Shown piece after piece: positions 4,477 through 64,000 of a stretch of 64,000 nt of DNA. Both the position numbers and the translations under genes were made by a program. The first letter of the stretch is position 1. Every line of letters starts with the position of its first letter. The stretch lies in assembly GCA_951406725.2 (NCBI GenBank), contig OX597825.1, positions 17,546,001 to 17,610,000 of the forward strand. Direction: 5' to 3'. The stretch is from Octopus vulgaris (lineage: Eukaryota). The notes under the pieces were generated by a model that was not told where the DNA came from, did not search any database, and was given only the letters and a program-made list of their open reading frames with translations.

Positions 4477-5160
4477 CAGGTGTTGCACAAAATAATGGAA
4501 ACACCTTAAAATTTCAAACAAATTTACTTTAATATGTGGTACGACCGCCTTGGGAATAATTACACCTTGAATTCTACGAGGTATGGGCACGTACAAAGTA
4601 TGAATTGTACGTGCCCATATCAACTCATGTTGATATGTTTGTCCATTCTTCAGCTAAAACAGTCTCCACTTCTTGTAGTGGTGATGGTATGAGATATCGA
4701 CTCCTTACTTGTTTTTCTAAAATGCACTATAACGTTCCATAATATTGAGATCTGGGGGCTCTGGTAGCCAGATAAGATATTCAACATCACTAGAATGTTC
4801 CTCGTATCATTCAGTAACAACCTTAGCTGTTTGAATCGGTGCATTATAATCCTGAAAGATTACGTTTACCTCAGGAAACAGTTCTGCAAACATAGGAAGA
4901 ATATGATGAGATAAAATGCTTAAATAGCCTTGACTATTAATTCTGCCCTGAAGGGAAACTACTGGGTTGGCGGATTTCCAATATATAGCTCCCCAGGTCT
5001 TCACAGATCCTCCTCCATGTCTAACAGTTGGAAGAAATTAGTTCTGGTCAAATGCTTCTTTTGGCTATCTCCACATGTATACTCGGCCGGTGGTCGGAAA
5101 TAAGGTAAAGGATGACTCGTCCGAGAAAATAAGATTCTTCCACTCATCTTCTTGTAACTT
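4477..5160 (-). mobile_element. Tc1-like DNA transposon, 3' portion with one TIR (transposase pseudogene)
   Basis: Minus-strand fragments: WKNLIFSDESSFTLFPTTGRVYMWR (first catalytic D); WGAI...GRINSQGYLSILSHHILPM...IFQDYNAPIQTAK (the QDDNAP motif, second D); a degenerate P-Q-S-P-D-L-N region. The end reads TA|CAGGTGTTGCACAAAATAATGGAAACACC at 4475-4505, typical of a Tc1 TIR beside a TA target. Confidence 0.88.
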
Positions 5161-5319
5161 TAAACAATTAATATTCAACCTCATATAAACTGAGATTGTT
5201 GTTGGCTTTGAACTGATTTGGTTTCTATGTGTATGTATTCTGTCAGTACGAGTACTGAGAAACGCCATTCTCGATTAACAATTCGACAGCCATCACACTC
5301 ACGCACGCACGCATGCACG

Positions 5320-5414
<95 letters not shown>

Positions 5415-5577
5415 TACATATATACATATATATATGGATACATAATAATAATATAATATATACATGTATATATATACGTATATATATAGTATGGTTATAT
5501 ATATGTGAATATATATATATATACATAAGATATGCGTGTGTGTGTATGTTTACACACACACACACACACACACACAT

Positions 5578-5609
<32 letters not shown>

Positions 5610-6098
5610 TGCGGGTAAGTGGTAGGTGGAGAGATATCAGGAAGTAACTTGAGAGATGTAGTGATATATGGTTTTCCACCAGATACTTAGAGTAAACAAA
5701 AATCGACTTGTACATGGACGAGAGAAATTTAGTGTGAATTCTTAAATAAAATAATTGTAAGTTCTACATATTCATACAGGTCTCACATGCCCGTATTGTA
5801 TTCTATATTTATCAATTTAAATTCTAGTCATAAATCTTATTTATTTAAGATTTTTCTTTGACATCATGTCAGTACTGGAAAATTGATTTTTATACTTTAT
5901 ATTATTAATGGCCTAATCAATATCTTAATATAATAATTACAATAATAAATTTTCATCGGTTACAGTTTTATGCACATTGCACTGTAACTGCTCTCTTATA
6001 CACACAACTGCTCTTATACACACAAAAGCCCGCATTCTAATAAGCACAGATACATACAAATACAGTAAATTAGCCTGCAACACTTTTATTACACACAC

Positions 6099-6150
<52 letters not shown>

Positions 6151-6314
6151 ACAGTGATTTCACTATTTACTCCGTCGGTATATACAGTTTACATATATAA
6201 CAGGGGAAGAATACTTACAGATTTCATATCTGTTAGCAAACGCACAGTAAACTTTTCACGGGAATGTAATCATATTGTATATCGTTTCCTACTTTTCACG
6301 TATATATATATATA

Positions 6315-6357
<43 letters not shown>

Positions 6358-6449
6358 CTTCAGCTATTGGCATGCAATACATTCTTCATTTTGGAAATTG
6401 AATGATTGAAATGTTTACAATGCTATCTTCTTAAATTTATACTGTGGAA

Positions 6450-6612
6450 AGTAGTTGGCATTAGAAAGGCTATCAGACTGTAACAATCACGACAATCAAA
6501 TATTGCAGCTCGGTGCAGTTATCTCGCTCGTCGAAACCTGTTGAATGGTCCAATATATGCCAGCATGAAAAAAAGACGATATTAATACATTACTATGATG
6601 ATGATGATGACG
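6450..6612 (+). mobile_element. Degenerate retroposon 3' end with (GAT)n tail
   Basis: gttggcattagaaaggctatcagactgta...gtccaatatatgccagcatg...gatgatgatgat resembles the 3' tail of RTE-related octopus retroposons. Recognised by pattern only. Confidence 0.45.
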
Positions 6613-7186
6613 AGGAAACAATTTCACAAAGGCATAACAATAACAAGGCAAATATATTTTCATCATTTGGACTTAGAGTGAAGAACTGCTTCAAGTATTG
6701 CTGTAAAATTCAGAACAAAACATCAAAACATATATACAAAAGTTGTAAATATAGAAAAGAAAATTATCGTATATCCAATGATACATATAAAAGTACGTCA
6801 TTCATATGTAAACATAGACGCTCACGTGCTTCTGTGTGTATGTGTAAAATTCAGCCACAATGCACCAATCATTATTAATAAACTAACATGAGCTATCAGC
6901 ATACGCCATACTTTCACCGTCTTTTCTGTGCGGTAAAGTGCACGCTTATAAATATTCTTCGTTCTGTAACCTCTTTATCATAGGAAATATCAAAGATGTA
7001 ATATTTGGAGGAGAGACGCTTAAACCTGTTCGTTTATATTTGTGTAAACTAGAGTTAATTGAAATGAAGCTCCTGAATCAAAGACTTCCTGCATCGACCG
7101 CTTTAGGAATCCATTTCAATCTTGCGGGTTCGATTAGGATTGTGGCACTAACACCTGAGAGTTTTTGCATGAGATATACATACATA

Positions 7187-7395
7187 AAGGTGGCAAGTTG
7201 GCAGAGTTGTTAACACGTCGGGCAAAAGGCTTAGCGACATTACGTCGGTCTTTACATTCTGAGCTCAAATTCTGCCGAGGTCGACTCCCCTCTCATCATT
7301 TCGGGGTCGATAAGTAAGTAACACTCAATCCATGGGGTCAAATTTAATCAACATATCACTTCCCCCAAATTGCATTCCTCATTCCTATCATAGAA
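7187..7395 (+). mobile_element. SINE family B (aaggcggcgagctggcag head), diverged
   Basis: Homologous to the reverse complement of 21216-21449; contains ttctgagctcaaattctgccgaggtcgac. Confidence 0.75.
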
Positions 7396-12300: not shown

Positions 12301-13134
12301 ATATATATATATATGCTTATAATATTTCGCTTGAGCATGTCAAAAGTAATAACCTCGCGTTAGAAGCCAATATATATGCTTTAAAATAAAGAATTATCTT
12401 ATAGCTTCCGGACACCCGTAAAAAGCCTTAAGGTGATTCGCATGCACTCAAAGCTGAGTGCATTGCACCTTATTACCAGAACAACCTGTAAGCTAATGAA
12501 CTTGATTACATAATTCTTATACACTTGTCATTTATTTAATTTCCTATTACGCAATATATATACAGATACATTGATACACACACATATCCTATGTCCCTGT
12601 CGTAAGGCCTTAGTTCCACACACGCCAGCTTAATTTAATTCGTCCTTAGTCGAAAGACACCTGTCGTTATGTCCCGTTATTTATATTTGTGTAAGATTTC
12701 TGGGGGATTTTTCCGGCCTTGCTTCGTATACATTCGGAATGTAATGTAATGCTCTTAACTTATTTTTCTTTGAGGCTGGCCAGATTGGAGCAATCTCGAG
12801 TATAACCAGCCGAAATTGTAAAGATAATCTGGAACTCGACTGAGGATATAAAACCCCGAATGAGCCATCGTTGTTTTCCTTGTATCGTCTGTCTGGATAT
12901 TTTGTTATGTATATATGTATATACATACACATACACACACACATATATATATATACATACATATATACATGCATACACACACATCTATAATCTGTATATA
13001 CTATTTTGTTCTTTTACTTGTTTTAGTCATTTGACTGCGGTCATGCTGGAGCATAAAGGATTTTTTATTGGAAGAAACAGCATGGCCGCAGTCAAATGAC
13101 TGAAACAAGTAAAGAGTAAAGACTTTGCAAGGAA

Positions 13135-13877: not shown

Positions 13878-14850
13878 GAAGAGGCGAAACAAATAGTAAG
13901 ACAAGCAACATCAATGGAAATTGCAATTTCATTAATGGATTTATCCCAAGCCTACTGTAGCTGTTCACTCACGCTAGAATTATATAATTAAGCCGTTACA
14001 TGTAACGAAACGCATAATTGTATTTATTATATATTCGTAAGTATTTCCTCTAGCCACCGATCATTACAGGTTTATCATGAATCCTCAATGAATAATTATT
14101 GCATACACTGGTTTGCTATATATTGGAACGTGGATGGATTACATGTAGTTGAGCAACAAAGGTTAAATCACAGACAGATGTAATAATATATTGCAGTGAA
14201 TTCACAATAGCTTAATAAAAACAACAAAGCGAACATACAAAGGCAAGCAAGTACACGCACACACACGCACACACACACACGCACACTCACACTTACATAT
14301 ACACAAAAATGGATTGATGGATGTTTCTCTGAGAAATATTCAATTACGCAATTCACCGAATTGCATGCTTCTGGATTAATATATGCGTGGTTGAAACGTC
14401 CCTAGACATGTATTCCCATAACGTAATTCTCAGACTCCGTCAGATTGACATAGTGTCTAACACAGATCTACAATTTGAATTCGAAATACAACCCACCCGT
14501 CGGGCTTCTATACATTTTGCTTCTATCTTGCTTATTCTCACGTAAAGGATGTGTTGACCCTAGGTGATAGAAAATAAAATCAGCCTAAAATGACACGTAA
14601 TATGTTCGCGATATAACGGACTGCTCAATGAAGCCATATGGATATGTATGTGTATGTAGGCGTACGTCTATGTGTCTGTGTGTGGTTATCTTGTTTAACC
14701 AATCAGAAACCAATTTGGAGAAGAAATAACTTATAGGTAAAAAGCACAGCAACTATTATTTTTCAAAGCATAATAATCGCCATATTATAAACTCACCCAA
14801 ATAGCAACCTAATGGAGCTAAATATATATATTGAAATGCATTACGTATAT

Positions 14851-15245
14851 AGGCGCATGCGTGGCTGTGTGGTAAGAATCTTCCTTCCCGAAAAAAAAAA
14901 CGGTTCTCAGTTCAGACCCACTGTGTGGCACCTTGGCCAAATGTCTTCCAATGCAGCTTCACGTCGACCAAAGATTTGTGACTGGATTTAGCAGCCTGAA
15001 AGAAGTCCCTCGTAGATGTATATATATATGTATGCATGTATGTGTGTATGCATATGTGTGTGTGTGTGCATTTGTGTATTTCTCCTCATCACCACTTAAC
15101 AACCGGTGTTAGAGTGTTTACAATAGAACAAGTAGTATGCTTAAATATATTTTTCTGAAGTCGATTTCTTCGACTAAGAACATTCGAGGTTGTACTCCAG
15201 CATGACTGTAGTTAATTGACTGAAATATGTAAAAGAAATAAGGAA
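14851..15245 (+). mobile_element. SINE family A, full length, diverged
   Basis: tRNA-like head gcgtggctgtgtggtaag...gttcagaccc, an internal (TA/TG)n tract, and tail ctccagcatg...gactgaaa. Confidence 0.8.
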
Positions 15246-15873
15246 TACGTATGTATGTGTGTGTGTCTATATATATATATATATATTCAAGTATACAATT
15301 AACTATATGTATCTACATATCTCAATCAATTTTTTCGTGCGTGTATGTGTGTGTATATGTGACTTTGCGTGTGTGAATGTATATACAAGTTCATTTTTCT
15401 GTTTCTTATACATGGAATGAGACAAGTTTGCAAATTGTTTTGAGAATATTTGACACTTAAATCAACTTTTCTCCTTTTGTTTTTAATACTCATCTGAACA
15501 TTTCGTAAATGCGAGTTTTATAAAGAAATAATAATATTCCAATATCTAGAAGATTAAATATAAACAGGTATTGTAAATAGGTGTCTAGCAGAAACAAAAG
15601 TTAGAATTGAATATAGGGGCGAATATAGGCTGGGAGAAGAATGCATGGAACCAAATGTATAAATACAGGGTAAATGAGGAAGACAGCAAAATGAGAAAGA
15701 AATGAAGATGGAAGGTAAAAAGTGTGACAGATTGTGTTATAGGGTATTTGTAATATTCATAGATTGTTCATGAAGTGAGGGGAAAATCTAACTCATATAG
15801 GCATTCAAAGACAAGCGCACAGATAAACATGCACAAATATGATTATACTATTTTATAATACGTTAAAACTGCG

Positions 15874-16045
15874 TGCTGGCGAGGTATTTTGCACGCCAGG
15901 CAAAATGCTTTCGCCCGACCTGTAATTTCTGAGTTGAAATCCACAGGGGTCTACTTTAACTTTTATCCTTCCGTGGATGTCTGTGTAATCGACTTATCCA
16001 TTTCCACGAATTTGTCTGCCATGTGCCAACATTTGAAACCAGTAT
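15874..16045 (+). mobile_element. SINE family B, highly diverged
   Basis: gctggcgag...gcacgccagg caaaatgctt...ttctgagttgaaat...ttttatccttccg. Confidence 0.55.
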
Positions 16046-16616
16046 TTCATATTAAGTTTAATGATTAGGTATTAAACACTATGAAGTATTATATATGTGT
16101 TAGAAGATAATATATTCTATTCCAATCCGTAGCAGATGTATAGCGGAAAATTCAAGTCATTTTACTGAAATTTCGTGCTACAGTTTGGAGTCTGTATGGT
16201 CGCCATTTTACACACGTTTTACTGAAAACCATAATATAATTGCATAAGACTATCTTAACACAATCTTTTGTTACATGTGACTTCATGAGGATTTGTTGGA
16301 ATAATGAAGAATGATGTTTAGTGTCATTAAACATTTATATCATTCCAGAAATTTGAAAGCGCATTATATCTATCAGTTTGCAGACAAAGTGTCACCACAG
16401 AATTCAAAGACATCAGACGAAATGGTGTTTTAATGTAAGATATACTAACGCAGTAACAACAACATGAGTTGCGATGAAACGGAACAAGATGACATTAACA
16501 GAATTGCTAATGATAATAGATAAGAGAAAGACTGCAATTCCAAGTTTAAAACAAAACGTAAAAAGAATAAGAAACTGCAAGTTGCATACGTAAGTCTATG
16601 AACACGTATCGATATT

Positions 16617-16666
<50 letters not shown>

Positions 16667-16717
16667 TAATAGACGCATATGGATATATATATATATATAT
16701 ATATATATACATGCATA

Positions 16718-16749
<32 letters not shown>

Positions 16750-16781
16750 CAGACACACATATATATATATATATACACATG

Positions 16782-16820
<39 letters not shown>

Positions 16821-16952
16821 TGAGGGTGTCTAAAAGACACCAACATGCCGAAATAGCAGTCGAAACTCTGACTATAAAACCACGTTAAATGTTCATATCG
16901 CACCATGAGGTAAAGCGGAGGGACAAAACATACAAGCAAAAATTATTGAATA

Positions 16953-17012
16953 ATTCAAGATCCAAGGATTTCTGGTTCTGCTTTAGATAAGCTTTACCGT
17001 CATCAATTGAAT
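16953..17012 (-). ncRNA. Type I hammerhead-ribozyme-like motif (copy A)
   Basis: Minus strand: AUUCAA-UUGAUGA-C GGU AAA GCUU AUCUA AAGC AGA ACC A-GAAA-UCC UU GGAUC-UUGAAU. Confidence 0.6.
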
Positions 17013-17582
17013 ATATCAAGGGTACATAAATACAGATATATATATGCACAGCAAACGATATACTTACATATACGAGCGTCGTACATACATACATATGCAC
17101 GTATGGACACAGCCAGTTTGAATCGCCCGCCAAATCACCGCATAAGTACGATATGGTTAAAATAAGCACCGCAGTGAATATAATAACGAATTATATAAAT
17201 TTATATATGAGGATAATATCGATATTTAAGTGTCGAAATTATCAAGTGGCCAGCATGAAAGAAATACCTTACAAAGGTAAAAAAAATTTTTTTTTTAACA
17301 ATTAAAAATGAGGGTGTCTAAAAGACACCAACATGCCGAAATAGCAGTCGAAACTCTGACTATAAAATATATAAATATATAAACTCATACATAAATTTAT
17401 ATAATTCGTTATTATATTCACTGCGGTGCTTATTTTAACCATATCGTACTTATGCGGTGATTTGGCGGGCGATTCAAACTGGCTGTGTCCATACGTGCAT
17501 ATGTATGTATGTACGACGCTCGTATATGTAAGTATATCGTTTGCTGTGCATATATATATCTGTATTTATGTACCCTTGATAT

Positions 17583-17642
17583 ATTCAATTGATGACGGTA
17601 AAGCTTATATAAAGCAGAACCAGAAATCCTTGGATCTTGAAT
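17583..17642 (+). ncRNA. Type I hammerhead-ribozyme-like motif (copy B)
   Basis: Stem I AUUCAA/UUGAAU; core UUGAUGA (17589-17595); stem II GGU/ACC plus GCUU/AAGC; GAAA (17623-17626); short stem III AUCC-UU-GGAU; cleavage triplet AUC. Confidence 0.62.
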
Positions 17643-18073
17643 TATTCAATAATTTTTGCTTGTATGTTTTTTCCCTCCGCTTTACCTCATGGTGCGATAT
17701 GAACATTTAACGTGGTTTTATAGTCAGAGTTTTGACTGCTATTTCGGCATGTTGGTGTCTTTTAGACACCCTCATTTTTAATTGTTAAAAACAAAAATTT
17801 GTTACCTTTGTAAGGTATTTCTTTCATGCTGGCCACTTGATAATTTGGACACTTAAATATCGATATTATCCTCATATCTAAATTTATATAATTCGTTATT
17901 ATATTCACTGCGGTGCTTATTTTAACCATATCGTACTTCTGCGGTGATTTGGCGGGCGATTCAAACTGGCTGTGTCCATACGTGCATATGTATGTATGTA
18001 CGACGCTCGTATATGTAAGTATATCGTTTGCTGTGCATATATATATATATCTGTATTTATGTACCCTTGATAT

Positions 18074-18132
18074 ATTCAATTGATGACGGTAAAGCTTATT
18101 TAAAGCAGAACCAGAAATCCTGGATCTTGAAT
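18074..18132 (+). ncRNA. Type I hammerhead-ribozyme-like motif (copy C)
   Basis: As copy B, with loop AUUUA and one U missing in the stem III loop. Confidence 0.58.
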
Positions 18133-18364
18133 TATTCAATAATTTTTGCTTGTATGTTTTGTCTCTCCGCTTTACCTCATGGTGCGATATGAACATTTAA
18201 CGTGGTTTTATAGTCAGAGTTTTGACTGCTATTTCGGCATGTTGGTGTCTTTTAGACACCCTCATTTTTAATTGTTAAAAAAAAATTTTTTTTTACCTTT
18301 GTAAGGTATTTCTTTCATGCTGGCCACTTGATAATTTCGACACTTAAATATCGATATTATCCTC

Positions 18365-18422
<58 letters not shown>

Positions 18423-18615
18423 GTACACACACATATAGGTATACATGTACTCATTTCCATTATACTTTTAGTTCCTTAAATTAGCGTATCTATGCATGAG
18501 TGTTTCAATCCGAAACTTTAACTACATTTCACTGTTTGCAAGTGTTTTTTTATGATTCATGCATTGGCGTTGTGATTCTCTTAACATTCATGCTAGGCGA
18601 CAAACAAACTAAACG

Positions 18616-18900
18616 TGGTGGCACATGGCTCATTGGTTCTAGCAGCGGACTCGTCATCGAGGGATCGTGGGTTCGAATCTCAGACTGGGCGATGTGCCCG
18701 TTTATGAGCGAAACACGTAAGTTCTACGCAGCTCCAGCACAAGGTAACGGCGAACTTCTGCTGACCCTTCCATCACATCTTTCGCTTACTCTTTCCTCCT
18801 ACATCTAGCAGCGACGGACAAGTGTATACGTATACGCCAATGAAACGAAGGAACCGGCCCTTATGAGCCATGCCATGTTTCGAAAAGGAACAAACAACAA
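18616..18900 (+). mobile_element. SINE family C (tRNA-derived head gtggaggcgcatggcctagtggttag)
   Basis: A-box and B-box-like head (gggttcgaatct); homologous to 43009-43320; (CAA)n tail. Confidence 0.85.
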
Positions 18901-19235
18901 CAGCATACGCTAAGCAATATAATAGGACCTCATTACATAACACACATGGTAACGGCAATGATCGTTGTTTAATCAAATAGTGTTGTCTCTTAGTCTTTCC
19001 CAAGAAATGTTGTCGTTAGAGAATTTGTCAACAGTGTTACTATTGTTTTTATTTGATTTAAAACTTTGCTTTGGCAATATAAACATTGCAGGTTCAATGT
19101 TTAATACACCTTTTTTGTAATTGAATATTTTTAAGATTCGCAAATAATGTAAGTAGGGGATATGATTCGGCTGCTCAGTTTCTTTACATATTGTTGTTGT
19201 TATTTAGTGTATTTGCTCTTTGTATTTGAAAGATG

Positions 19236-19489
19236 GTGGAGGCAAGTTGTTCAGTCGTTAGGGTGCCAGCACCATGACCCTAAGATTGTGGTTTCGATTC
19301 CTTGACCGGGCAAAGCGTTGTGTTCTTGAGCAAAACACTTCATTTCACATTGCTCCAGTCCACTCAGCTGGCAAAAATGATCAACACTGAGATGGGCTGG
19401 CGTCCCGTCCAGCTAGGGAACACATAGGACATAGAAACCGGGAAACTGGGCCTATGAGCCTCTCTAGGTTTTAAAATGGCGCATTTATT
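19236..19489 (+). mobile_element. SINE family C variant with 13-bp TSD
   Basis: TSD tatttgaaagatg at 19223-19235 and 19490-19502; B-box ggtttcgattcc; homologous to 52872-53135. Confidence 0.85.
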
Positions 19490-19577
19490 TATTTGAAAGA
19501 TGAGGCTTATTAGTGCGACATTTTAACTGAAACTACTAGCAAGTCTTAAACCTAACTACACCTTTATATATCTATAC

Positions 19578-19796
19578 CAGTGTTTTTCAATATTTTTGCT
19601 GGAGCGGAACCCCAAGGAAACATTCCACTGGCTAGAGGAACCCATGTGCAATAATTTAATAGACTTATGCACACATATCTGCACAGGAGAATTAAAAATT
19701 ACTGCCGATTTTAGCAGTTTTGTAATTTCTTGCGGAACCCCTGGACTGTACTGGTGGAACCCTAAGGTTCCGCGGAATCCTGGTTGTAAAGCACTG
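19578..19796. mobile_element. hAT (Charlie-like) MITE
   Basis: TIRs CAGTGTTTTTCAA...TTGTAAAGCACTG; repeated subterminal (C)GGAACCC motifs; left flank atctatac resembles the NTCTAGAN target. The right flank matches only imperfectly. Confidence 0.75.
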
Positions 19797-20846
19797 AAAT
19801 ATATACTACCGGCCCCACATAAATAGTTTATTTATCTTGTTTAAACGCCAATTTTTCTGCAAGATAGCGTTCTGGGACCCTATGTATATGTGACCAGAGA
19901 GAATTGGAATGATTGAAATGTAGACAATAAAAACCCATTCAAGAGAACAGTATGAAATGTTTCTCTGATACATTATCGCTTTGAGTAGAATTTAGAAACG
20001 TGACTTGAAAAAATATGGCATAAATTCTTTGGATAAAATGTTAAGTCAAAATGTGTGTCTACATCGGGTGAGGGGGAAAGAGGAAAAGGTATTAGATTAG
20101 AAGTCTCTGCAAGTAAGATATATGATCTATTGTTTATTTACTATATTTATTACATTTTGTTTTTCATATTTTCTTCTTTCTTTTGTCGTATTTCATTCAA
20201 AATTGCTCGGTATTCTTTTATTCATTTTGTTCTCCTTTATTCCATTTTCTTCTTAATTTTTCAATATTTTGTATATATTTCTCATTTCTTTCTAACCTAT
20301 CTATTTGAAATTATTTATCACACATCTTTTTATTGAAAATTATTCGCATATTCAAAAATAATGTTCCAATTCTTGTTCTATCAAATATTTATTACAGTGT
20401 CAGTTTTCAGATAAAGATAAAATGTATTGAATAATCAACTAGCCAAAACATGGAGTAACAAATATGAAAATCTCAATTCTAGCAGTTCTGGTATAAATAA
20501 CTCTTCTTAATATATTGAGTATTTTTTTCTGTTTCCTATCGTTTCTATTATAGATATATGAGTATGTGTTCGTATTTGTGTGTCTGACTGTGCATGCGTG
20601 CATGAGCATTTCGTTGTTAATTGGAGATTCAAACACGTATAATTTACATAAACGTAATCTGACGAGTAATACTGCTATATGCTCAATGTAGATATATTCA
20701 CATCGTACTAACTACGCGGATCCTCATAATGCATGATATGTCACAAACAAAATAACGTAAGTGGCTGGAGTAATATACTGTGAGATTATCCAATGTAGAT
20801 ATATATAATTATCAGAGAGCATATATTGAGAAGATTGTTATTTCTC

Positions 20847-21449
20847 ATTTCTTTACCACCCACAAGGTGATAAAAGTGGAGGTGACAAATAAGGACAGAC
20901 AAAGGGATTAAGTCGATTATATCGACCCCAGTGCTTAACTGATCCTTCTTTAATCGGCCCCGAAAGGATGAAAGGCGAAGTTGACCTCGGCGGAATTTGA
21001 AATCAGAACGTAGCAGCAGACGAAATACCTATTTCTTTACTACCCACAAGGGGCTAAACACAGAGAGGACAAACAAGGAGAGACAAATGGATTAAGTCGA
21101 TTATATTGATACCAGTGCGTAACTGGTACTTTATTTAATCGAGCCAGAAAGGATAGAAAGCAAAGTCGACCTCGGCGGAATTTGAACTCAGAACGTTGAG
21201 GCAGACGATATACCTATTTCTTTACTACCCACAAGGGGCTAAACACAGAGAGGACAAACAAGGAGAGACAAACGGATTAAGTCGATTATATCGATCTCAG
21301 TGCGTAACTGGTACTTTATTTAATCGAGCCAGAAAGGATGGAAAGCAAAGTCGACCTCGGCGGAATTTGAACTCAGAACGTTGCGGCAGACGAAATACCG
21401 CTAAGCATTTCGCCCGGCGTGCTAACGTTTCTGCCAGCTCGCCGCCTTA
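20847..21449 (-). mobile_element. SINE family B with one head and three tandem ~185-bp body copies
   Basis: Units start at 20847, 21031 and 21216; single head at 21400-21449. Confidence 0.9.
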
Positions 21450-30356: not shown

Positions 30357-31081
30357 TTTGATACTTTGATACTTTGATAGGTTTCGGCCATTATTGGCCC
30401 AGGCCATGTCTAACTTAATAGCACCACCTGGTGAAGTCTTTCAAGTCAGAATTTGGGCACTATGGCCCACTCAAGTAGAGAGTTATTGTTTACAGAGACA
30501 TATCCGGGTGTAGGGGGTTTATCCGGGATTTCTTGAAGGAATCTGTCCAAGGACTTCTTGAACCCTATAGGGTCAGTTTCTATTTTAATGTGTTTTGGTG
30601 TAATGTTAAAGAGAGCGGGGCCAATTGAGGTGAAATAATTGTGCCGTATTGTTGTTATGAGATGAGAGTGCGATTTTTGTTTTGGGCGGATGGCTCGGGG
30701 CCCAAGCCTTGGATGTACCTTAAAGGTGATGCCAACATCATTTGGGCAATGCTGATGGAATATTTTCCACATCATGCAGATGATGTAGCGCTCACGACGA
30801 CGTTGGAGAGAATAGAGTTTTAGCTTTTCTAGTCGACCCCAATAGTCGAGGCCTGTCATGCCATCTATCTTTTTTGTGATTGCCCTTTGAGGTGCTTCAA
30901 TTTTTATGATACCTTGTATTGTGTGGGGAGACCACAGTGGACAACAGTATTCAAGGTGGGGTCGGGCAAAAGGGGAGAAGAGAAGGATAATGGTGTGGAT
31001 ATCTCTCGACTGGAAAGTTCTGAGAATCCAGGAACACATTCTGCGGGCCATGTCAACTTTGGTGTTTATATGAGTGGCCCA
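30354..31081 (-). mobile_element. 5'-truncated CR1-clade LINE (ORF2 C-terminus, 3' UTR, (ATCAAAGT)n tail)
   Basis: ORF 30446-31051 has [13 protein letters not shown]...[32 protein letters not shown], the characteristic CR1 post-RT region. An 8-nt tandem tail lies at 30354-30379. The reading frame is uninterrupted and the element sits in (TA)n. Confidence 0.9.
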
Positions 31082-31148
31082 TATATATATATATATATGT
31101 ACATATATATGTATTTATATTTTATATGTATATATATGTGTGTGTGTA

Positions 31149-32609: not shown

Positions 32610-33718
32610 TGATAATTGTGGTAAAGATGAATCCCAAGTCAATTCTCTCGTTGATACGGTGTATAGTTTCAGTGCTGATGTCGAACTGAAAAGTTGAGGT
32701 GTGTTAGTCTTGAAGAGAAGCAAAATCAAATGTATGGGCAAACTAGCGATACCGTCGGGGAAGATTATGAAGCAGATAGAAGAGACTAGCTATAAGTACT
32801 TGGCGATATTGGAAATGGATAATGTGATGAAGAAAGAAATGACAGAAAATATTATTGTGGAGTACGTGCGCAGAATGTGACCGATCCTTAAGTCGAAACT
32901 AAACCGATAGAATAAGATTGAAGCTATCAACATCTGGGCGACTTCACAACTTACATATAGAACAGGGGTTATCGCATGGACAGCAGACGAACAAATCAGC
33001 TTAGACAGAAAGAGAAGGAAGACCCTGACCAAGAAAAAGAAAGGGAAGAGGACTGATTGGATACAAACATAGCATTGGAGCAGAAGAAAACACCATAACA
33101 TACGATGTAAAAAATGCCACAGAATCGCTATTATTGGAATTAAGAAGGCTAGGCTTTTTTAGGATGGAAGATTGCAAAGATAAAACACTTTACAATCACT
33201 TGAGAATGAATGAAACTGAAAATAGGTGTATAAACAAAAGAATGCATGGACAATTTCATAGGGATGTTGAAGAAGAGACAGACAGAGAAAAATATGGCAA
33301 TGGATGACTCAGTGCAACCATGAGATAGAGGAATAGGAAACCGGACAAAGTGTTAATTGAGAAAGAAAGCAAACGATGTTAAGTCATAGATATATCATGC
33401 CCAGCTGACAACAAGGTATGGGATAAGGAAGAAAGAAAAGTCGATAACTATGAAAGGTTAGCCTGGGAGGTTACGCATTTGCGATCGTTGAAAAAGGTGG
33501 TGGTAGTACCAATAATTGTCGGAGCCCTGGGAACAGTGAGTAAAATTCTCGAGAAGTACGTGGAACAAATAGGGGCTACACTATGGGTGGAAAACTTCCA
33601 GAAAACAGCACTGGTTAGAACTGCTCGAATATTCTGGATGGTACTCGAACGATAAAGGTTTTTTTTTACCTTAGTTTACTGGTAGTGAAAAGTTGATACC
33701 ATAGTACATCTAATAATA
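32610..33718 (+). mobile_element. Degenerate R4/Dong-clade (RLE) non-LTR retrotransposon, 3' part
   Basis: Broken frames give SLVDTVYSFSAD, YKYLAILE, ILKSKLN..NKIEAINIWA, LDRKRRKTLT, KRMHGQF, and KPDKVLIEKE...VIDISCPAD (PD..D restriction-like endonuclease). These are followed by VVPIIVGALGTV and QKTALVRTARI, with a stop at 33653-33655. Confidence 0.88.
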
Positions 33719-34999: not shown

Positions 35000-35371
35000 C
35001 TCTTTTCTTTATGACTTTAACCCTACAACGCGGACTATAGGCCACTTATAGTTGAATTCCATGTTGCATAATTTTTGGCTTCTGTACTTATACTCTGCCA
35101 CGAATGTCCCACTTCCTCTATTTCCTTTTGTGTTGATCTCCGCCACGAGTTCTTAGTCCTACCTCTCCTTCTATAACCATCCGGTTTCAACTGTATAGCA
35201 CTTTTTGGTGTGTGTTTTCTAATCGTGCTACCAATCCGGATCCACTTTTTCTTAAATATTTGCTCCCTAATCGAAACTTGATTTGTTCTTTGCCATAGCT
35301 CCATATTGCTTATGTGTTCGGGCCATCTAATTTTCAGTATACTACGCAAGCATCTGTTGATGAATGATTGT
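35000..35371 (-). mobile_element. RTE-clade LINE 3' fragment
   Basis: FINRCLRSILKIRWPEHISNMELWQRTNQ...KKKWIRIG...GYRRRGRTKNSWRR; the typical RTE ORF C-terminus. Confidence 0.85.
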
Positions 35372-35609
35372 AGAATGATTAAGACGAGAATAAGTAAGGC
35401 AAGGACTTACTTTTCACCTGTTAAAGAAAGTATGGAGCCCATCATGGCCAAACAAAATTTCCTCGTCCGGAAAGTATACAAATAAACTTAAGAGACGTGT
35501 TCCGTAGAGAATATGATTGAAAGAACTTCGAACTCTTTTATAAGAGCAGCAAATATTGTAACTAAATGCGAAGTAGTAAAAGACATCTAAGAACTTTTCT
35601 GCCCAGAAA

Positions 35610-44146: not shown

Positions 44147-44353
44147 TAGAGGGGAAACCACTATGTGGACACCCTTATGCTAGAAATAGAGCCGCTATGG
44201 TCTTACCACTAAGAAATGTTCGAAGAAAAATTTAGCAAAACAACCAAAACGTTTTGGTTGTTTGCTAATTTTTTCTTGAGAACATTTCTTAATGGTAAGA
44301 CCATAGCGGATCTATTTCTAGCATAAGGCTGTCCACATAGTGGTTTCCCTCTA
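44147..44353. repeat. ~207-bp spacerless imperfect palindrome
   Basis: Centred at 44250/44251 (caaccaaaac|gttttggttg); the arms carry several mismatches. Confidence 0.92.
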
Positions 44354-56409: not shown

Positions 56410-57003
56410 TATAATAATGCGGGTATTTTCAACAGCTTGAACTAAATGTCAGAGGGGAATGGGATAAACTACTTATATTAACTTGCTATGAAAGCAGGTA
56501 GTAATTTTATCTTGTCCTTATTCATAGTGCAAGTTTTGAAGAGTGCATTTCGATTTTAACAGCTATTTTTTTCAAAGCTATATTGGAAGTAACAAAGGAG
56601 CATATTTGGCATATTTTGCTTTATGAGTTCAATAAAGACAACAACGCAACGGAAAGTACAAGAAATATTAATGCAGTATATGGGGATTGGACAATAAGCG
56701 TAAGGCAGTGTCAATGGTGGTTCCAGAAATTCCGAGCCATAAACTACAGCCTAGAAGACGAGCCTCATCCTGAAAGATCTGTAGAACTCGACAAGGACAT
56801 CCTGAAAACCCTGGTGGAACAAAATCTCATCGTAACTGTTGAGGAACTAGCAGAGAAGCTTGGATTTGGTCATTCAACCATTCATTGAGACCTGTGTGCT
56901 ATCGGAAAAGTCAGCAAATTGGGTCAATGGGTTCCTCACGAACTTTCCGAGTCTAATTGCATGCAGAGAGTGAATGTATGCTTTTCTTTGCTGTCACATC
57001 TCA
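56410..57003 (+). mobile_element. Mariner (Hsmar1/SETMAR-like) transposon, 5' part; transposase pseudogene
   Basis: ORF 56583-56888 reads KEHIWHILLYEFNK..NATESTRNINAVYG..TISVRQCQWWFQKFR..NYSLEDEP. After an in-frame stop it continues GKVSKLGQWVPHELSE (the WVPHEL motif). The catalytic domain is absent. Confidence 0.92.
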
Positions 57004-57023: not shown

Positions 57024-57658
57024 TCTATATATATAAAACTGTAGTTGTGTGAGTGTCTGTCCCCTTCGATTTAGATTCCTAACTACTCCCACATTTTGCG
57101 GTGCAGTTTAACCAAATTCGGGTAGCTTATAGTCGTGATTCATATCGAGCCCGTCTGACTATTAGCGCGCGTCAACGATGAGTCTACGATTTTAAAAATA
57201 ATTTAACATCATTTTTTATTCCATTTTAATGCATAATTTTTCGTGTGTCGATGGCGGCGGAGTTGGCGTCCACGCTCACACCTGCACCTGTGGGGAAGGG
57301 AGTGTAAGGAAATCAACGTCGTAATGCGTTGTCAAGGAGACCAGCGTTCTTTTAGAACAACGACTTCATGGCTTGAAGACACCAAAACAGAAATGGCTAA
57401 GAAAGCGTCTACATGAGTCTACGATTTAAAAAAAAATTTACCATCGTTTTTTTTCCATTTTAATGCATTTTTCGCTATTATATAAGGGAAGTAACTCTCT
57501 AAAAATGTCTACGATGAGTCAACGATTTTAAAAAAATTTACCATCATATTTTTTCCATTTTTAATGGATTTTTTCCTATTTTTTGGCTATAACTCTCTAA
57601 AAATGCTTATATAGTTATTTCCCTTACAAACCCGAGCAACGCCGGGCGATACTGCTAG
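57024..57658 (+). mobile_element. Non-autonomous Helitron, complete
   Basis: A|TCTATATATATAAAAC ... hairpin CCCGAGCAACGCCGGG (57631-57646) ... CTAG|T. Three internal imperfect repeats (gatgagtctacgatttaaaaa...ccatt). Confidence 0.9.
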
Positions 57659-62255: not shown

Positions 62256-62333
62256 ATATTTTATACTCACACACATACACACGGAACATGCATATACATA
62301 CATATATGTGAGTGTCTGTGTGGGTGTGTGTTT

Positions 62334-62563
62334 GTATATGGAGGTGGTGGCTTAGTGGTAAAGTTATTCAGCTCACGTTCCTAAGGTAGTAACTTATATA
62401 TGCGCACGCGCGCACACACTGAGTCACGCACACAGACATATATATATATATATATATATGTCTGTGTGCGTGACTCAGTGTGTGCGCGCGTGCGCATATA
62501 TAAGTTACTACCTTAGGAACGTGAGCTGAATAACTTTACCACTAAGCCACCACCTCCATATAC
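62334..62563. repeat. Perfect 230-bp palindrome centred on a (TA)n tract
   Basis: Arms are exact reverse complements about 62448/62449. Confidence 0.95.
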
Positions 62564-64000
62564 GCACACAGACATATATATATATATATATATATGCATG
62601 CACGCGTGCGTGCGTGTTTGTCTGTGTATGGTATGTGTGTATATGCATGTAAACATAATTTTGAGGTTTTTAATCTGAACTAAACCAAACATATTTTGCT
62701 CGTTTTCTGTTTCGAAAGAGCAGGGATACAGAATTGTAAAACGCTATTAATTCTCAGCAGCACTTGTGGTGAAATAGGAACCGTAGCTATTTAGCTGAAG
62801 TTTGTTACTGGTGTATGCAAGCTAATATATTAATGAAAATAGGCAGTATCAAAAGTCTTCGAATTAAATATCATAAACCAACACATTCATATTTATCTTA
62901 GGACCATGAAAGCATTTAATTAAAAGATGCTTTCTTAATGTTATCTTATTGCCTACCGGTTTATATAATCACAAGTAAGAAGCAATTTTGTGAACTAGGT
63001 CAGTCTAGTTTCATTATTAGTTGAAACAACGTTTTCTTTCTCGCTTTGCGAATTGTATTCTTATTCCTTAAATATAATTGATCACAAGATGATATTTCCT
63101 AGATTAGGTTATCTCAAACTCTTGGCATATATAGTGCTTCTTAGATTAGAAGATTTTCGGAAGCGAACAGACGTTTGAAAGATTTGTTATAGCTACGTTT
63201 AAAAAAACAATGATATTAAACGAAAGCTATGTTATTCTAGTTGAAATATTTATTTATAAGACGAAATTTTATGATTGAAACCTTATGAAAACAATGACGT
63301 ATATGAGTCCTCCTCCGACTAGTGTGTATCTTAACAATTTCAATTATGAATGCTTTCATAAGAGCAGTGAGCTTACGTACCAACTCTATTATTTATTGTT
63401 ATTGAACAGCGAAATATTTCTACCACATATATATGTAGATTTAAACTGCTTTCAAAACTTTCGCACTTATAATGAGGCATTTCATTAATGATATATTGCA
63501 AAGAGTTGTTTTTTCCTCATGTAATTTTACTTTACAATATCTATTTGCTGTTTCGTTCCCACCCCTAAAAGATCACATCAAATTTTTCAGTCTACAAAAC
63601 GCATTGAACCCAAATCTAGATTCATTTTCTATAGAAAATTATTGAAATTAATTTATTTTTGCAAAGATTTAGCATTTTTACACTTCGGGGAATTTTGTTT
63701 TTCGAGGGAAAGAGAATATAAACTTACTAAAAGACACGTGATGTAATCCTTAGCTAAGGTGTCATGCAAGATAATTAGTTTAAAGTGAGGTGCGTCTACC
63801 TGTACTTCGAAGTATCTTACACCGGTACTTTACATAATTAATAGCAAGGAAGTAGATATATTCCCAGAATATGAGAAACATCAAATAAAATTAACCAGGT
63901 TTTTACGGATTTCATGAAATATCATGAAGATGCAGTCGAGGACCTAGTAATTGATTTGTGGGAATCAATCGATTATAGTGTATGTTTAAGGTTTTGACTA

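Follow-up and report, generated by a model that had tools for sequence, protein, structure and literature searches.

A multi-copy 490-bp repeat with an atypical hammerhead-like motif in Octopus vulgaris and its probable mobilization as a Penelope-like passenger

Introduction

How did two head-to-tail copies of a non-coding unit of ~490 bp, and a third copy that is inverted and circularly permuted, come to lie back-to-back within (TA)n DNA, each with a hammerhead-like motif? The locus lies in a 64,000-nt window of Octopus vulgaris (contig OX597825.1, positions 17,546,001 to 17,610,000; "the window" below is this whole stretch, and positions are counted from its first nucleotide). We propose that the locus is a single insertion from a multi-copy family of non-coding 490-bp repeats, a non-autonomous Penelope-like passenger that is in kind a non-long terminal repeat (non-LTR) retrozyme, with an atypical type I hammerhead predicted to be slow and dimeric. 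We give this reading a probability of roughly 0.6. That Penelope-like elements (PLEs) were involved in some way seems to us highly probable.

Non-LTR retrozymes consist of non-coding units in tandem that carry type I hammerheads, and they give rise to circular RNAs in coral, mussel and axolotl (PMC7229834; review, PMC7761336). A July 2026 preprint by Li, Clavereau and Pollet reports retrozyme families of 51-972 bp and links them to the pseudo-LTRs (pLTRs) of PLEs by co-occurrence and phylogeny, the mechanism being said to remain open (bioRxiv 10.64898/2026.07.22.740005); the available main text makes no mention of inverted copies, junctions or molluscs. The class is therefore already known, and this preprint already ties it to Penelope elements; the value of the present locus lies in its atypical core and its junction evidence. 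Shared hammerheads, co-occurrence and pLTR phylogeny have so far made up the link between retrozymes and Penelope, and the Penelope-type junction marks of the 490-bp family make the mechanism testable.

PLEs typically insert as tandem copies with an adjacent inverted, 5′-truncated copy, with (TA)n given as the target in the Naiad clade (PMC8557442). When purified, a PLE protein cleaves both strands of AT-rich DNA and begins reverse transcription internally, downstream of the hammerhead (PMC11167929). In O. vulgaris, 31 recently active Penelope-like families have been reported in a paper whose main text, in the portion available, does not contain the word ribozyme (PMC13282606). We found no description of the present family in the literature on cephalopod or octopus hammerheads and on inverted non-autonomous hammerhead repeats; repeat databases or supplements may list it.

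Results and Discussion

Structure and ends of the insertion

The earlier note on this DNA, made from the sequence alone, had described two head-to-tail units back-to-back with an inverted 1.14-unit copy that starts mid-unit, reads across the unit junction and has a terminal redundancy of ~67 bp, all in (TA)n surroundings. Every part of this architecture was borne out (Table 1). The inverted arm runs from the equivalent of 17716 across the unit junction to the equivalent of 17782, and the outer and inner copies of its redundancy are 100% identical. The two tandem units are 96.9% alike, and no further copy of the unit was found in the window besides these two and the inverted arm.

Table 1. Coordinates of the repeat, its hammerhead-like motifs and its borders in the window
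Feature	Coordinates	Strand	Basis or remark
Left (TA)n-rich tract, likely insertion target	16620..16814	.	Period 2, 98 copies, 82% matches
Inverted arm, 1.14 units, 555 nt; hammerhead-sense 3′ end faces left (outward)	16813..17367	-	Repeat comparison
Terminal redundancy, outer copy, 67 nt	16813..16879	-	Repeat comparison
Hammerhead-like motif of inverted arm, U3 at 17006, predicted cut after 16959	16953..17012	-	
Terminal redundancy, inner copy, 67 nt	17301..17367	-	Repeat comparison
Filler (TATATAAA)x2, 16 nt, at 5′-to-5′ junction of arms	17368..17383	.	Resembles TA-rich unit junction
Tandem unit 1, 487-nt period; 17384-17390 repeat the unit's end	17384..17877	+	Self-comparison
Hammerhead-like motif 1, predicted cut after C17636	17576..17649	+	Descriptor and fold prediction
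Three hairpins 3′ of hammerhead (17721-38, 17754-70, 17803-17)	17721..17817	+	Fold prediction
Tandem unit 2, 491 nt; 3′ end enters (TA)n via ~7-nt microhomology at TA-rich unit junction	17878..18367	+	
Hammerhead-like motif 2, U3 at 18080, loop III one U shorter, predicted cut after 18126	18074..18132	+	
Right (TA)n tract	18365..18421	.	Tandem-repeat listing

The unit has a GC content of 0.335. Neither of two open reading frames (ORFs) tested in it matched Pfam, and one compared with longer proteins matched 0 of 16 candidates, a weak test. It shows no sign of a tRNA-derived head, because the 64-kb window contains no tRNA gene. As a head-to-tail unit of a few hundred bp, non-coding with GC under 50% and multi-copy (see below), the repeat has the general properties of retrozymes and, with its predicted hammerhead, is a candidate member of that class. 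The palindrome TATCGATA stands immediately before the unit's 3′ end in every copy (at 17858, 18349 and 17217) and occurs once in the left flank (16607), among 7 occurrences in the whole window; we take it to be a match to the Drosophila DRE promoter element.

The ends of the insertion resemble those left by PLEs. Both outer ends are 3′ ends in the hammerhead sense and both abut (TA)n, with microhomology of ~7 nt at the right end and 2 nt at the left end. They lie 146 nt and 236-241 nt downstream of the predicted cut, and every copy continues through the cut site. Because the copies cross this site, a linear monomer released by cleavage is excluded as the template, which was probably a circle or an uncut multimer. 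A partial tandem with an inverted, 5′-truncated copy adjacent at its 5′ end is present at the locus, with a second example in the public run X4, and the target is AT-rich (TA)n. The likeness to described PLE insertions thus extends to the tandem plus inverted copy at the 5′ end, the AT-rich target and the internal 3′ ends downstream of the hammerhead (PMC8557442, PMC11167929).

The unit belongs to a multi-copy family

Confinement to a single locus had been set beforehand as one of the outcomes that would tell against the proposal. Of 24 public runs listed, 20 instead contained the unit, and 16 contained half or more of its 45 sampled words; the runs come from 11 studies and cover organisms A-F and one faecal metatranscriptome. 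Four of the 20 runs, all consisting of contigs, were compared with one unit, which gave 828 variant contigs in X4, 264 in X10, 49 in X8 and 49 in X19; 1,185 contig pieces lay outside the displayed comparison. The X4 contigs span a broad range of identity, with 158 at 99% or above, 210 at 95-99%, 217 at 90-95% and 243 under 90%. Summed depth in X4 reached 200,381 over parts of the 3′ half, against 4,921-7,188 at 17452-17485 and 28-58 for single junction contigs. Although summed depth is not copy number, setting 4,921-200,381 against 28-58 gives a rough family size of hundreds to thousands of copies. The changes peculiar to unit 1 were considered as the cause of a 0.62 ceiling in shared words and account for it only partly, as 324 of 457 31-mers (0.71) are common to another copy. 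X20, the sole run recorded as RNA, had a word share of 0.20 and was not counted as expression evidence.

The junctions of the locus recur in these runs. The head-to-tail joint from 17877 to 17391 was found in X4, X10 and X8, with a matching loose end in X19, and variant unit junctions run from 17870 to 17391 (X10) and from 17872 to 17390 (X8). This recurrence in three of the four runs, together with copies that cross the predicted cut, supports the earlier suggestion of a non-autonomous element copied from multimeric or circular RNA; the junction-spanning contig of X8 is equally compatible with a circle, a multimer or DNA. One X4 contig contains an opposite-strand joint (17387/17695) of the same geometry as the locus junction (17384/17716), and a further opposite-strand joint (17729/17825) was found in X19. 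Loose ends behind 17872 enter TA-rich sequence in two of the four runs (X4 and X19). A single X4 contig joins 17760 to 17391, a return after 370 nt, and a shorter unit variant of 370 bp seems to exist.

A hammerhead-like motif with an atypical core

Each copy of the unit contains one hammerhead-like motif. In motif 1, stem I pairs 17583-88 with 17637-42 (6 bp) and is extended across a 3x3 internal loop by an outer stem Ib (17576-79/17646-49). The core comprises U3 (17589), G8 (17594), C.A (17596/17622) and G12 (17623); stem IIa (17597-99/17619-21) is followed by a 3x3 purine loop and stem IIb (17603-06/17612-15), and the palindromic stem III occupies 17626-35. All three copies have U4 G5 A6 N7 G8 A9, G12 A13 A14, A15.1-U16.1 and H17 between three stems. 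As the earlier note had stated, they differ only in loops, at 17609 in loop II (A, T or C) and in loop III, which has UU or U.

A relaxed type I descriptor, which accepts U or C at position 3 and one extra base or mismatch at the base of stem II, was picked after the motif had been seen. It matched exactly three times in the window, once per copy, and in none of 20,000 dinucleotide shuffles of the unit and none of 30 shuffles of the window. We conclude that the feature is real and beyond chance. A 25-base hammerhead pattern had no match in JGI metagenome contigs or in viral contigs.

The motif shares several marks of PLE hammerheads, in which A9 is followed by an additional base and then a G-C pair, helix II is long and helix III is palindromic (Cervera 2014, PMC4209133). 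The counterparts here are C17596 after A9, the pair G17597-C17621, a helix II of 3+4 bp and the self-complementary stem III. In contrast, the extra A before G12 and the U3.G8 apposition are not among the PLE marks given there, the described variant being U3-A8, and stem I has 6 bp plus an outer stem where PLEs have 4-5 bp. Natural variants with U3-A8 and with U.U at the base of stem II were described by Perreault et al. 2011, whose filter discards core or core-adjacent mismatches as false positives (PMC3088659); both a weak stem III and a mismatched stem II base (U.U) thus have precedents. A halophile-derived sequence is likewise written with U3 and G8, but it has a 2-nt insertion before position 3 and does not come from an animal repeat (PMC7151607). 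In the available text of the literature on hammerhead variants, we found no description of C.A at 10.1/11.1 combined with U3.G8.

Predicted folding favors a dimer

In the monomer, stems I, Ib and IIb have pair probabilities of 0.89, 0.85 and 0.99, and the hammerhead topology is predicted in both tandem units (free energies of -8.6 and -9.5 kcal/mol) with a non-canonical core. The earlier note had read stem III (AUCC-UU-GGAU) as a minimal stem. Such a stem of 4 bp with a loop of 1-2 nt cannot form inside one copy; in the monomer it is reduced to 2 bp plus the 15.1-16.1 pair, with a pair probability of 0.01. The same segment is predicted to form a self-duplex at -8.9 kcal/mol with two U's or -8.1 with one, and no hairpin alone. 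In a transcript of unit 1 and unit 2, the double hammerhead has a predicted energy of -136.9 kcal/mol compared with -127.3 for two monomers (9.6 lower). Modelling thus lends support to the dimer that had been suggested from the shortness of stem III, and any cleavage would most likely be slow and dimeric. A weak stem III that favors dimers is also known from the axolotl retrozyme (PMC7229834), although the axolotl HHR_Amex2 has U.U where the present unit has C.A, and the unit also has U3.G8.

The unit folds better than its shuffles on the hammerhead strand (z -3.9), and when it is folded as a circle z is -4.25 on that strand versus -2.67 on the other. The three hairpins downstream of the motif (Table 1) form a stretch that is a possible recognition module for the reverse transcriptase (RT). 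The two strands of the extended stem I (17576-17588 and 17637-17649) can each also form a small hairpin, and a cleaved monomer is predicted to begin with that of 17637-17649.

Evidence against the proposal and alternative explanations

A number of findings weigh against the proposed reading. The earlier note had called the type I hammerhead complete. All of the elements that it named are present in the three copies, but the core is less intact: position 3 is U17589 opposite G17594 in each copy, so that neither a C3-G8 nor a U3-A8 pair is found, and no change at either base appears among the 40 listed of 72 substitution rows. Similarly, both parts of the two-part stem II are present, but its base is a C17596.A17622 mismatch (equivalently, one extra base per side) instead of a flush 10.1-11.1 pair. 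Because these two core features were looked for and not found, we do not class the ribozyme as a canonical hammerhead. A strict canonical type I descriptor had no match in the window, and the Rfam check that had been proposed returned no hammerhead at E<=10 for 14000-21000 or for a 111-nt stretch, a miss that we attribute to U3 facing G8 and to the C.A mismatch that closes stem II. Over the whole window Rfam returned nothing at the gathering score, the best models being (TA)n-driven microRNA models far under threshold. Stem IIa has a pair probability of only 0.22 in the monomer, and the free minimum fold (-143.7 kcal/mol) lies below the double hammerhead.

The family data and the literature add further difficulties. 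Counts of variation rest on 40 listed of 72 substitutions, 12 of 23 indels and 24 of 199 loose ends. As to the stem covariation that the earlier note had raised, the listed variation is loop-biased, and no two-sided compensatory change was seen among the listed variants. A stretch outside the hammerhead, 17517-17582, is likewise without a listed substitution, and low variation is therefore not specific to the ribozyme. The contigs of the four runs showed no position at which the starts or ends of many molecules coincide; for X8 and X19 an RNA origin is only presumed, and contigs carry no strand, ends or level. The outer ends of the insertion map to 17782 and 17872-17877, ~90-95 nt apart at this one locus, rather than 30-40 nt apart as for a PLE tail. 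No stop-to-stop frame of the window was recognisable as the ORF of a partner PLE (11 frames scanned with Pfam). Finally, PLE insertion in vitro did not depend on hammerhead cleavage (PMC11167929), and only one of nine predicted Xenopus retrozyme dimers was cleaved in vitro (10.64898/2026.07.22.740005).

One explanation for such results is that the same Penelope mobilization acted on a repeat whose hammerhead is weak or a dead relic, with uncut multimers as templates, no circular RNA, and a fold that serves as a binding structure or is merely inherited. We consider this unlikely, yet it survives better than the other alternatives. The two core departures and the missing Rfam match would follow from it, as would copy ends that are not at the cut site, and the difference of about 2.5% between the tandem units is expected from a mixed linear multimer. 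Published systems offer parallels, since the main substrate of PAc was unprocessed RNA, with no reads ending at the cut (PMC11167929), and eight of the nine Xenopus dimers showed no cleavage (10.64898/2026.07.22.740005). However, the loop-biased pattern of change speaks against it. The hammerhead span (17583-17642) holds 2 of the 40 listed substitution rows, both in loops, and 1 of the 12 listed indels, in loop III. In a divergent X8 loose end, five of the six substitutions over 17600-17629 fall in loops and the sixth is compatible with pairing (P 0.016-0.026, hand-read); this divergent relative retains the extra A before G12, GAAA, stem IIb and the 5′ side of stem III. Moreover, the identical 67-nt redundancy, with its own variant shared by both repeats, fits more than one round on a circle, and slow natural core variants are known to retain activity (PMC3088659).

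A second, improbable alternative is that the unit is the pLTR, the 3′ end, of an autonomous PLE, and that the locus is a cluster of heavily 5′-truncated copies with no independent life. The arrangement at the locus is the textbook one for PLEs, whose hammerheads occur mostly in truncated copies (PMC4209133). In addition, some relatives depart from the unit upstream of 17682-17697 or 17825; with the far higher X4 depth in parts of the 3′ half, this suggests that subfamilies or a partner element share a 3′ module joined to other 5′ sequence. The hairpins 17721-38 and 17803-17 of the departing relatives have kept their stems and changed their loops. In contrast, random 5′ truncation would scatter the junction variants, which return to 17390/17391 in three runs and appear, as judged from matching depth, to include a subfamily only ~85% alike. 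Few contigs enter unlike sequence in X4 and X10 (1-2 in 100), although the figures for X8 and X19 are 11 and 23 in 100 and contigs are short in general; no ORF remnant was found at the repeat.

The histories of the two arms bear on the remaining alternative. Both repeats of the inverted arm have C at the equivalent of 17733, where both tandem units have T. Relative to the other copies and the family variants, the tandem units have 11-12 changes of their own and the inverted arm has one, this C (P 0.009-0.054, Poisson; 0.025-0.10, binomial), and 359 of the inverted arm's 525 31-mers are found in the tandem arm. Because the tandem units' own changes are absent from the inverted arm, which carries its own C in both repeats, that arm did not arise by fold-back of the tandem as it now stands. 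A single event may have copied two distinct RNAs; alternatively, the inverted arm was added later, 5′ of an older dimer. The flanks share only (AT)n as a possible target-site duplication, which in non-LTR retrozymes exceeds 4 bp where there is one. A product of DNA-level events, whether a satellite-like or rolling-circle repeat with a fold-back inverted arm at (TA)n or an assembly chimera, would suit the other long palindromes of the window (62268-62620, 44147-44353 and 13013-13113) and the lack of a readable target-site duplication in (TA)n, but it is very improbable given this separate ancestry and the similar inverted junction in an independent run, and it leaves the strand-biased RNA structure and the hammerhead unexplained.

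A model for insertion of a Penelope-like passenger

If the 490-bp family is a passenger of PLEs, its tandem copies would be transcribed into multimeric RNA, in which adjacent hammerheads could pair via their palindromic stem III and release some monomers, and these may be circularised by a host ligase. A Penelope RT/GIY-YIG protein would nick both strands of (TA)n DNA, and reverse transcription would begin inside the RNA, at two AU-rich positions 146 nt and ~240 nt 3′ of the cut. Because each arm crosses the cut site and exceeds one unit, its template would have been an uncut multimer or a circle. The last step would be the 5′-to-5′ joining of two cDNAs, made from different templates, through a short TA-rich filler, so that both 3′ ends face outward.

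This model combines features of two known systems. Like the animal non-LTR retrozymes of Cervera and de la Pena 2020 (PMC7229834), the family has an AT-rich, non-coding tandem unit that is well folded, a type I hammerhead-like fold in each copy and many dispersed copies. Its unit is longer than the 150-450 bp given there and within the 51-972 bp of the preprint (10.64898/2026.07.22.740005), and it differs from those retrozymes by the adjacent inverted, permuted arm. Unlike PLEs, it has no RT/GIY-YIG ORF in or beside the repeat. Non-coding PLE passengers with multicopy head-to-tail insertions have a precedent in the Chlamys PLEs, such as MRC1, but that clade lacks canonical hammerheads and is reported from green algae, spike mosses and slime molds (PMC8557442). 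The earlier note had offered a retrozyme or a Penelope-derived element as alternatives; in the light of the preprint they are probably one answer and not two (10.64898/2026.07.22.740005).

A bolder version of the proposal is that the motif represents an active hammerhead class, with U3.G8 and a two-part stem II closed by C.A, that escapes both Rfam and strict descriptors. This class would drive a retrozyme family with circular RNA and hundreds to thousands of copies, in a hitherto unreported animal lineage, and the insertions of the family would be a direct record of Penelope biochemistry, with a pair of internal priming sites, two templates and a 5′-to-5′ joint. We hold this only tentatively, as a possibility with the odds against it. 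If true, it would provide proof, so far lacking at the level of junctions, that retrozyme circles are mobilised by Penelope proteins. If the motif cuts, the tolerated hammerhead core is wider than described, and whole families are absent from present tallies of animal retrozymes. If it does not, the family is a Penelope repeat of the ordinary, non-autonomous sort whose ribozyme has decayed.

Other features of the window

The window is AT-rich (GC 0.27-0.42) and crowded with microsatellites, with LINE-like and mariner fragments, and it looks like animal DNA that is intergenic or intronic in appearance. Its SINE-like repeats resemble those of octopus. A frame at 30449-31114 (minus strand), without a Pfam match, is similar to the C-terminal region of an endonuclease-reverse transcriptase of the LINE type (atlas score 0.94). 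Two broken frames, also without Pfam matches, are by their look presumably C-terminal ends of LINEs, that at 33029-33652 (plus strand) of a restriction-like-endonuclease LINE and that at 35038-35406 (minus strand) of an RTE LINE. A Mariner/Mos1 transposase helix-turn-helix fragment (PF17906, E 5e-20) lies at 56505-56885 (plus strand).

Several palindromes and tandem repeats were also seen. The ~350-bp palindrome at 62268-62620 is centred on (TA)n and has arms that resemble a SINE-type 5′ fragment, 44147-44353 is a ~207-bp hairpin like those of miniature inverted-repeat transposable elements (92% self-complementary), and 13013-13113 is a short imperfect palindrome built from the end of a dispersed repeat. 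Two tandem copies of ~100 bp, 82% alike, occupy 57407-57605. Three tandem 185-bp units at 20847-21399 are 89% alike and gave no hammerhead descriptor match, and parts of them recur elsewhere in the window.

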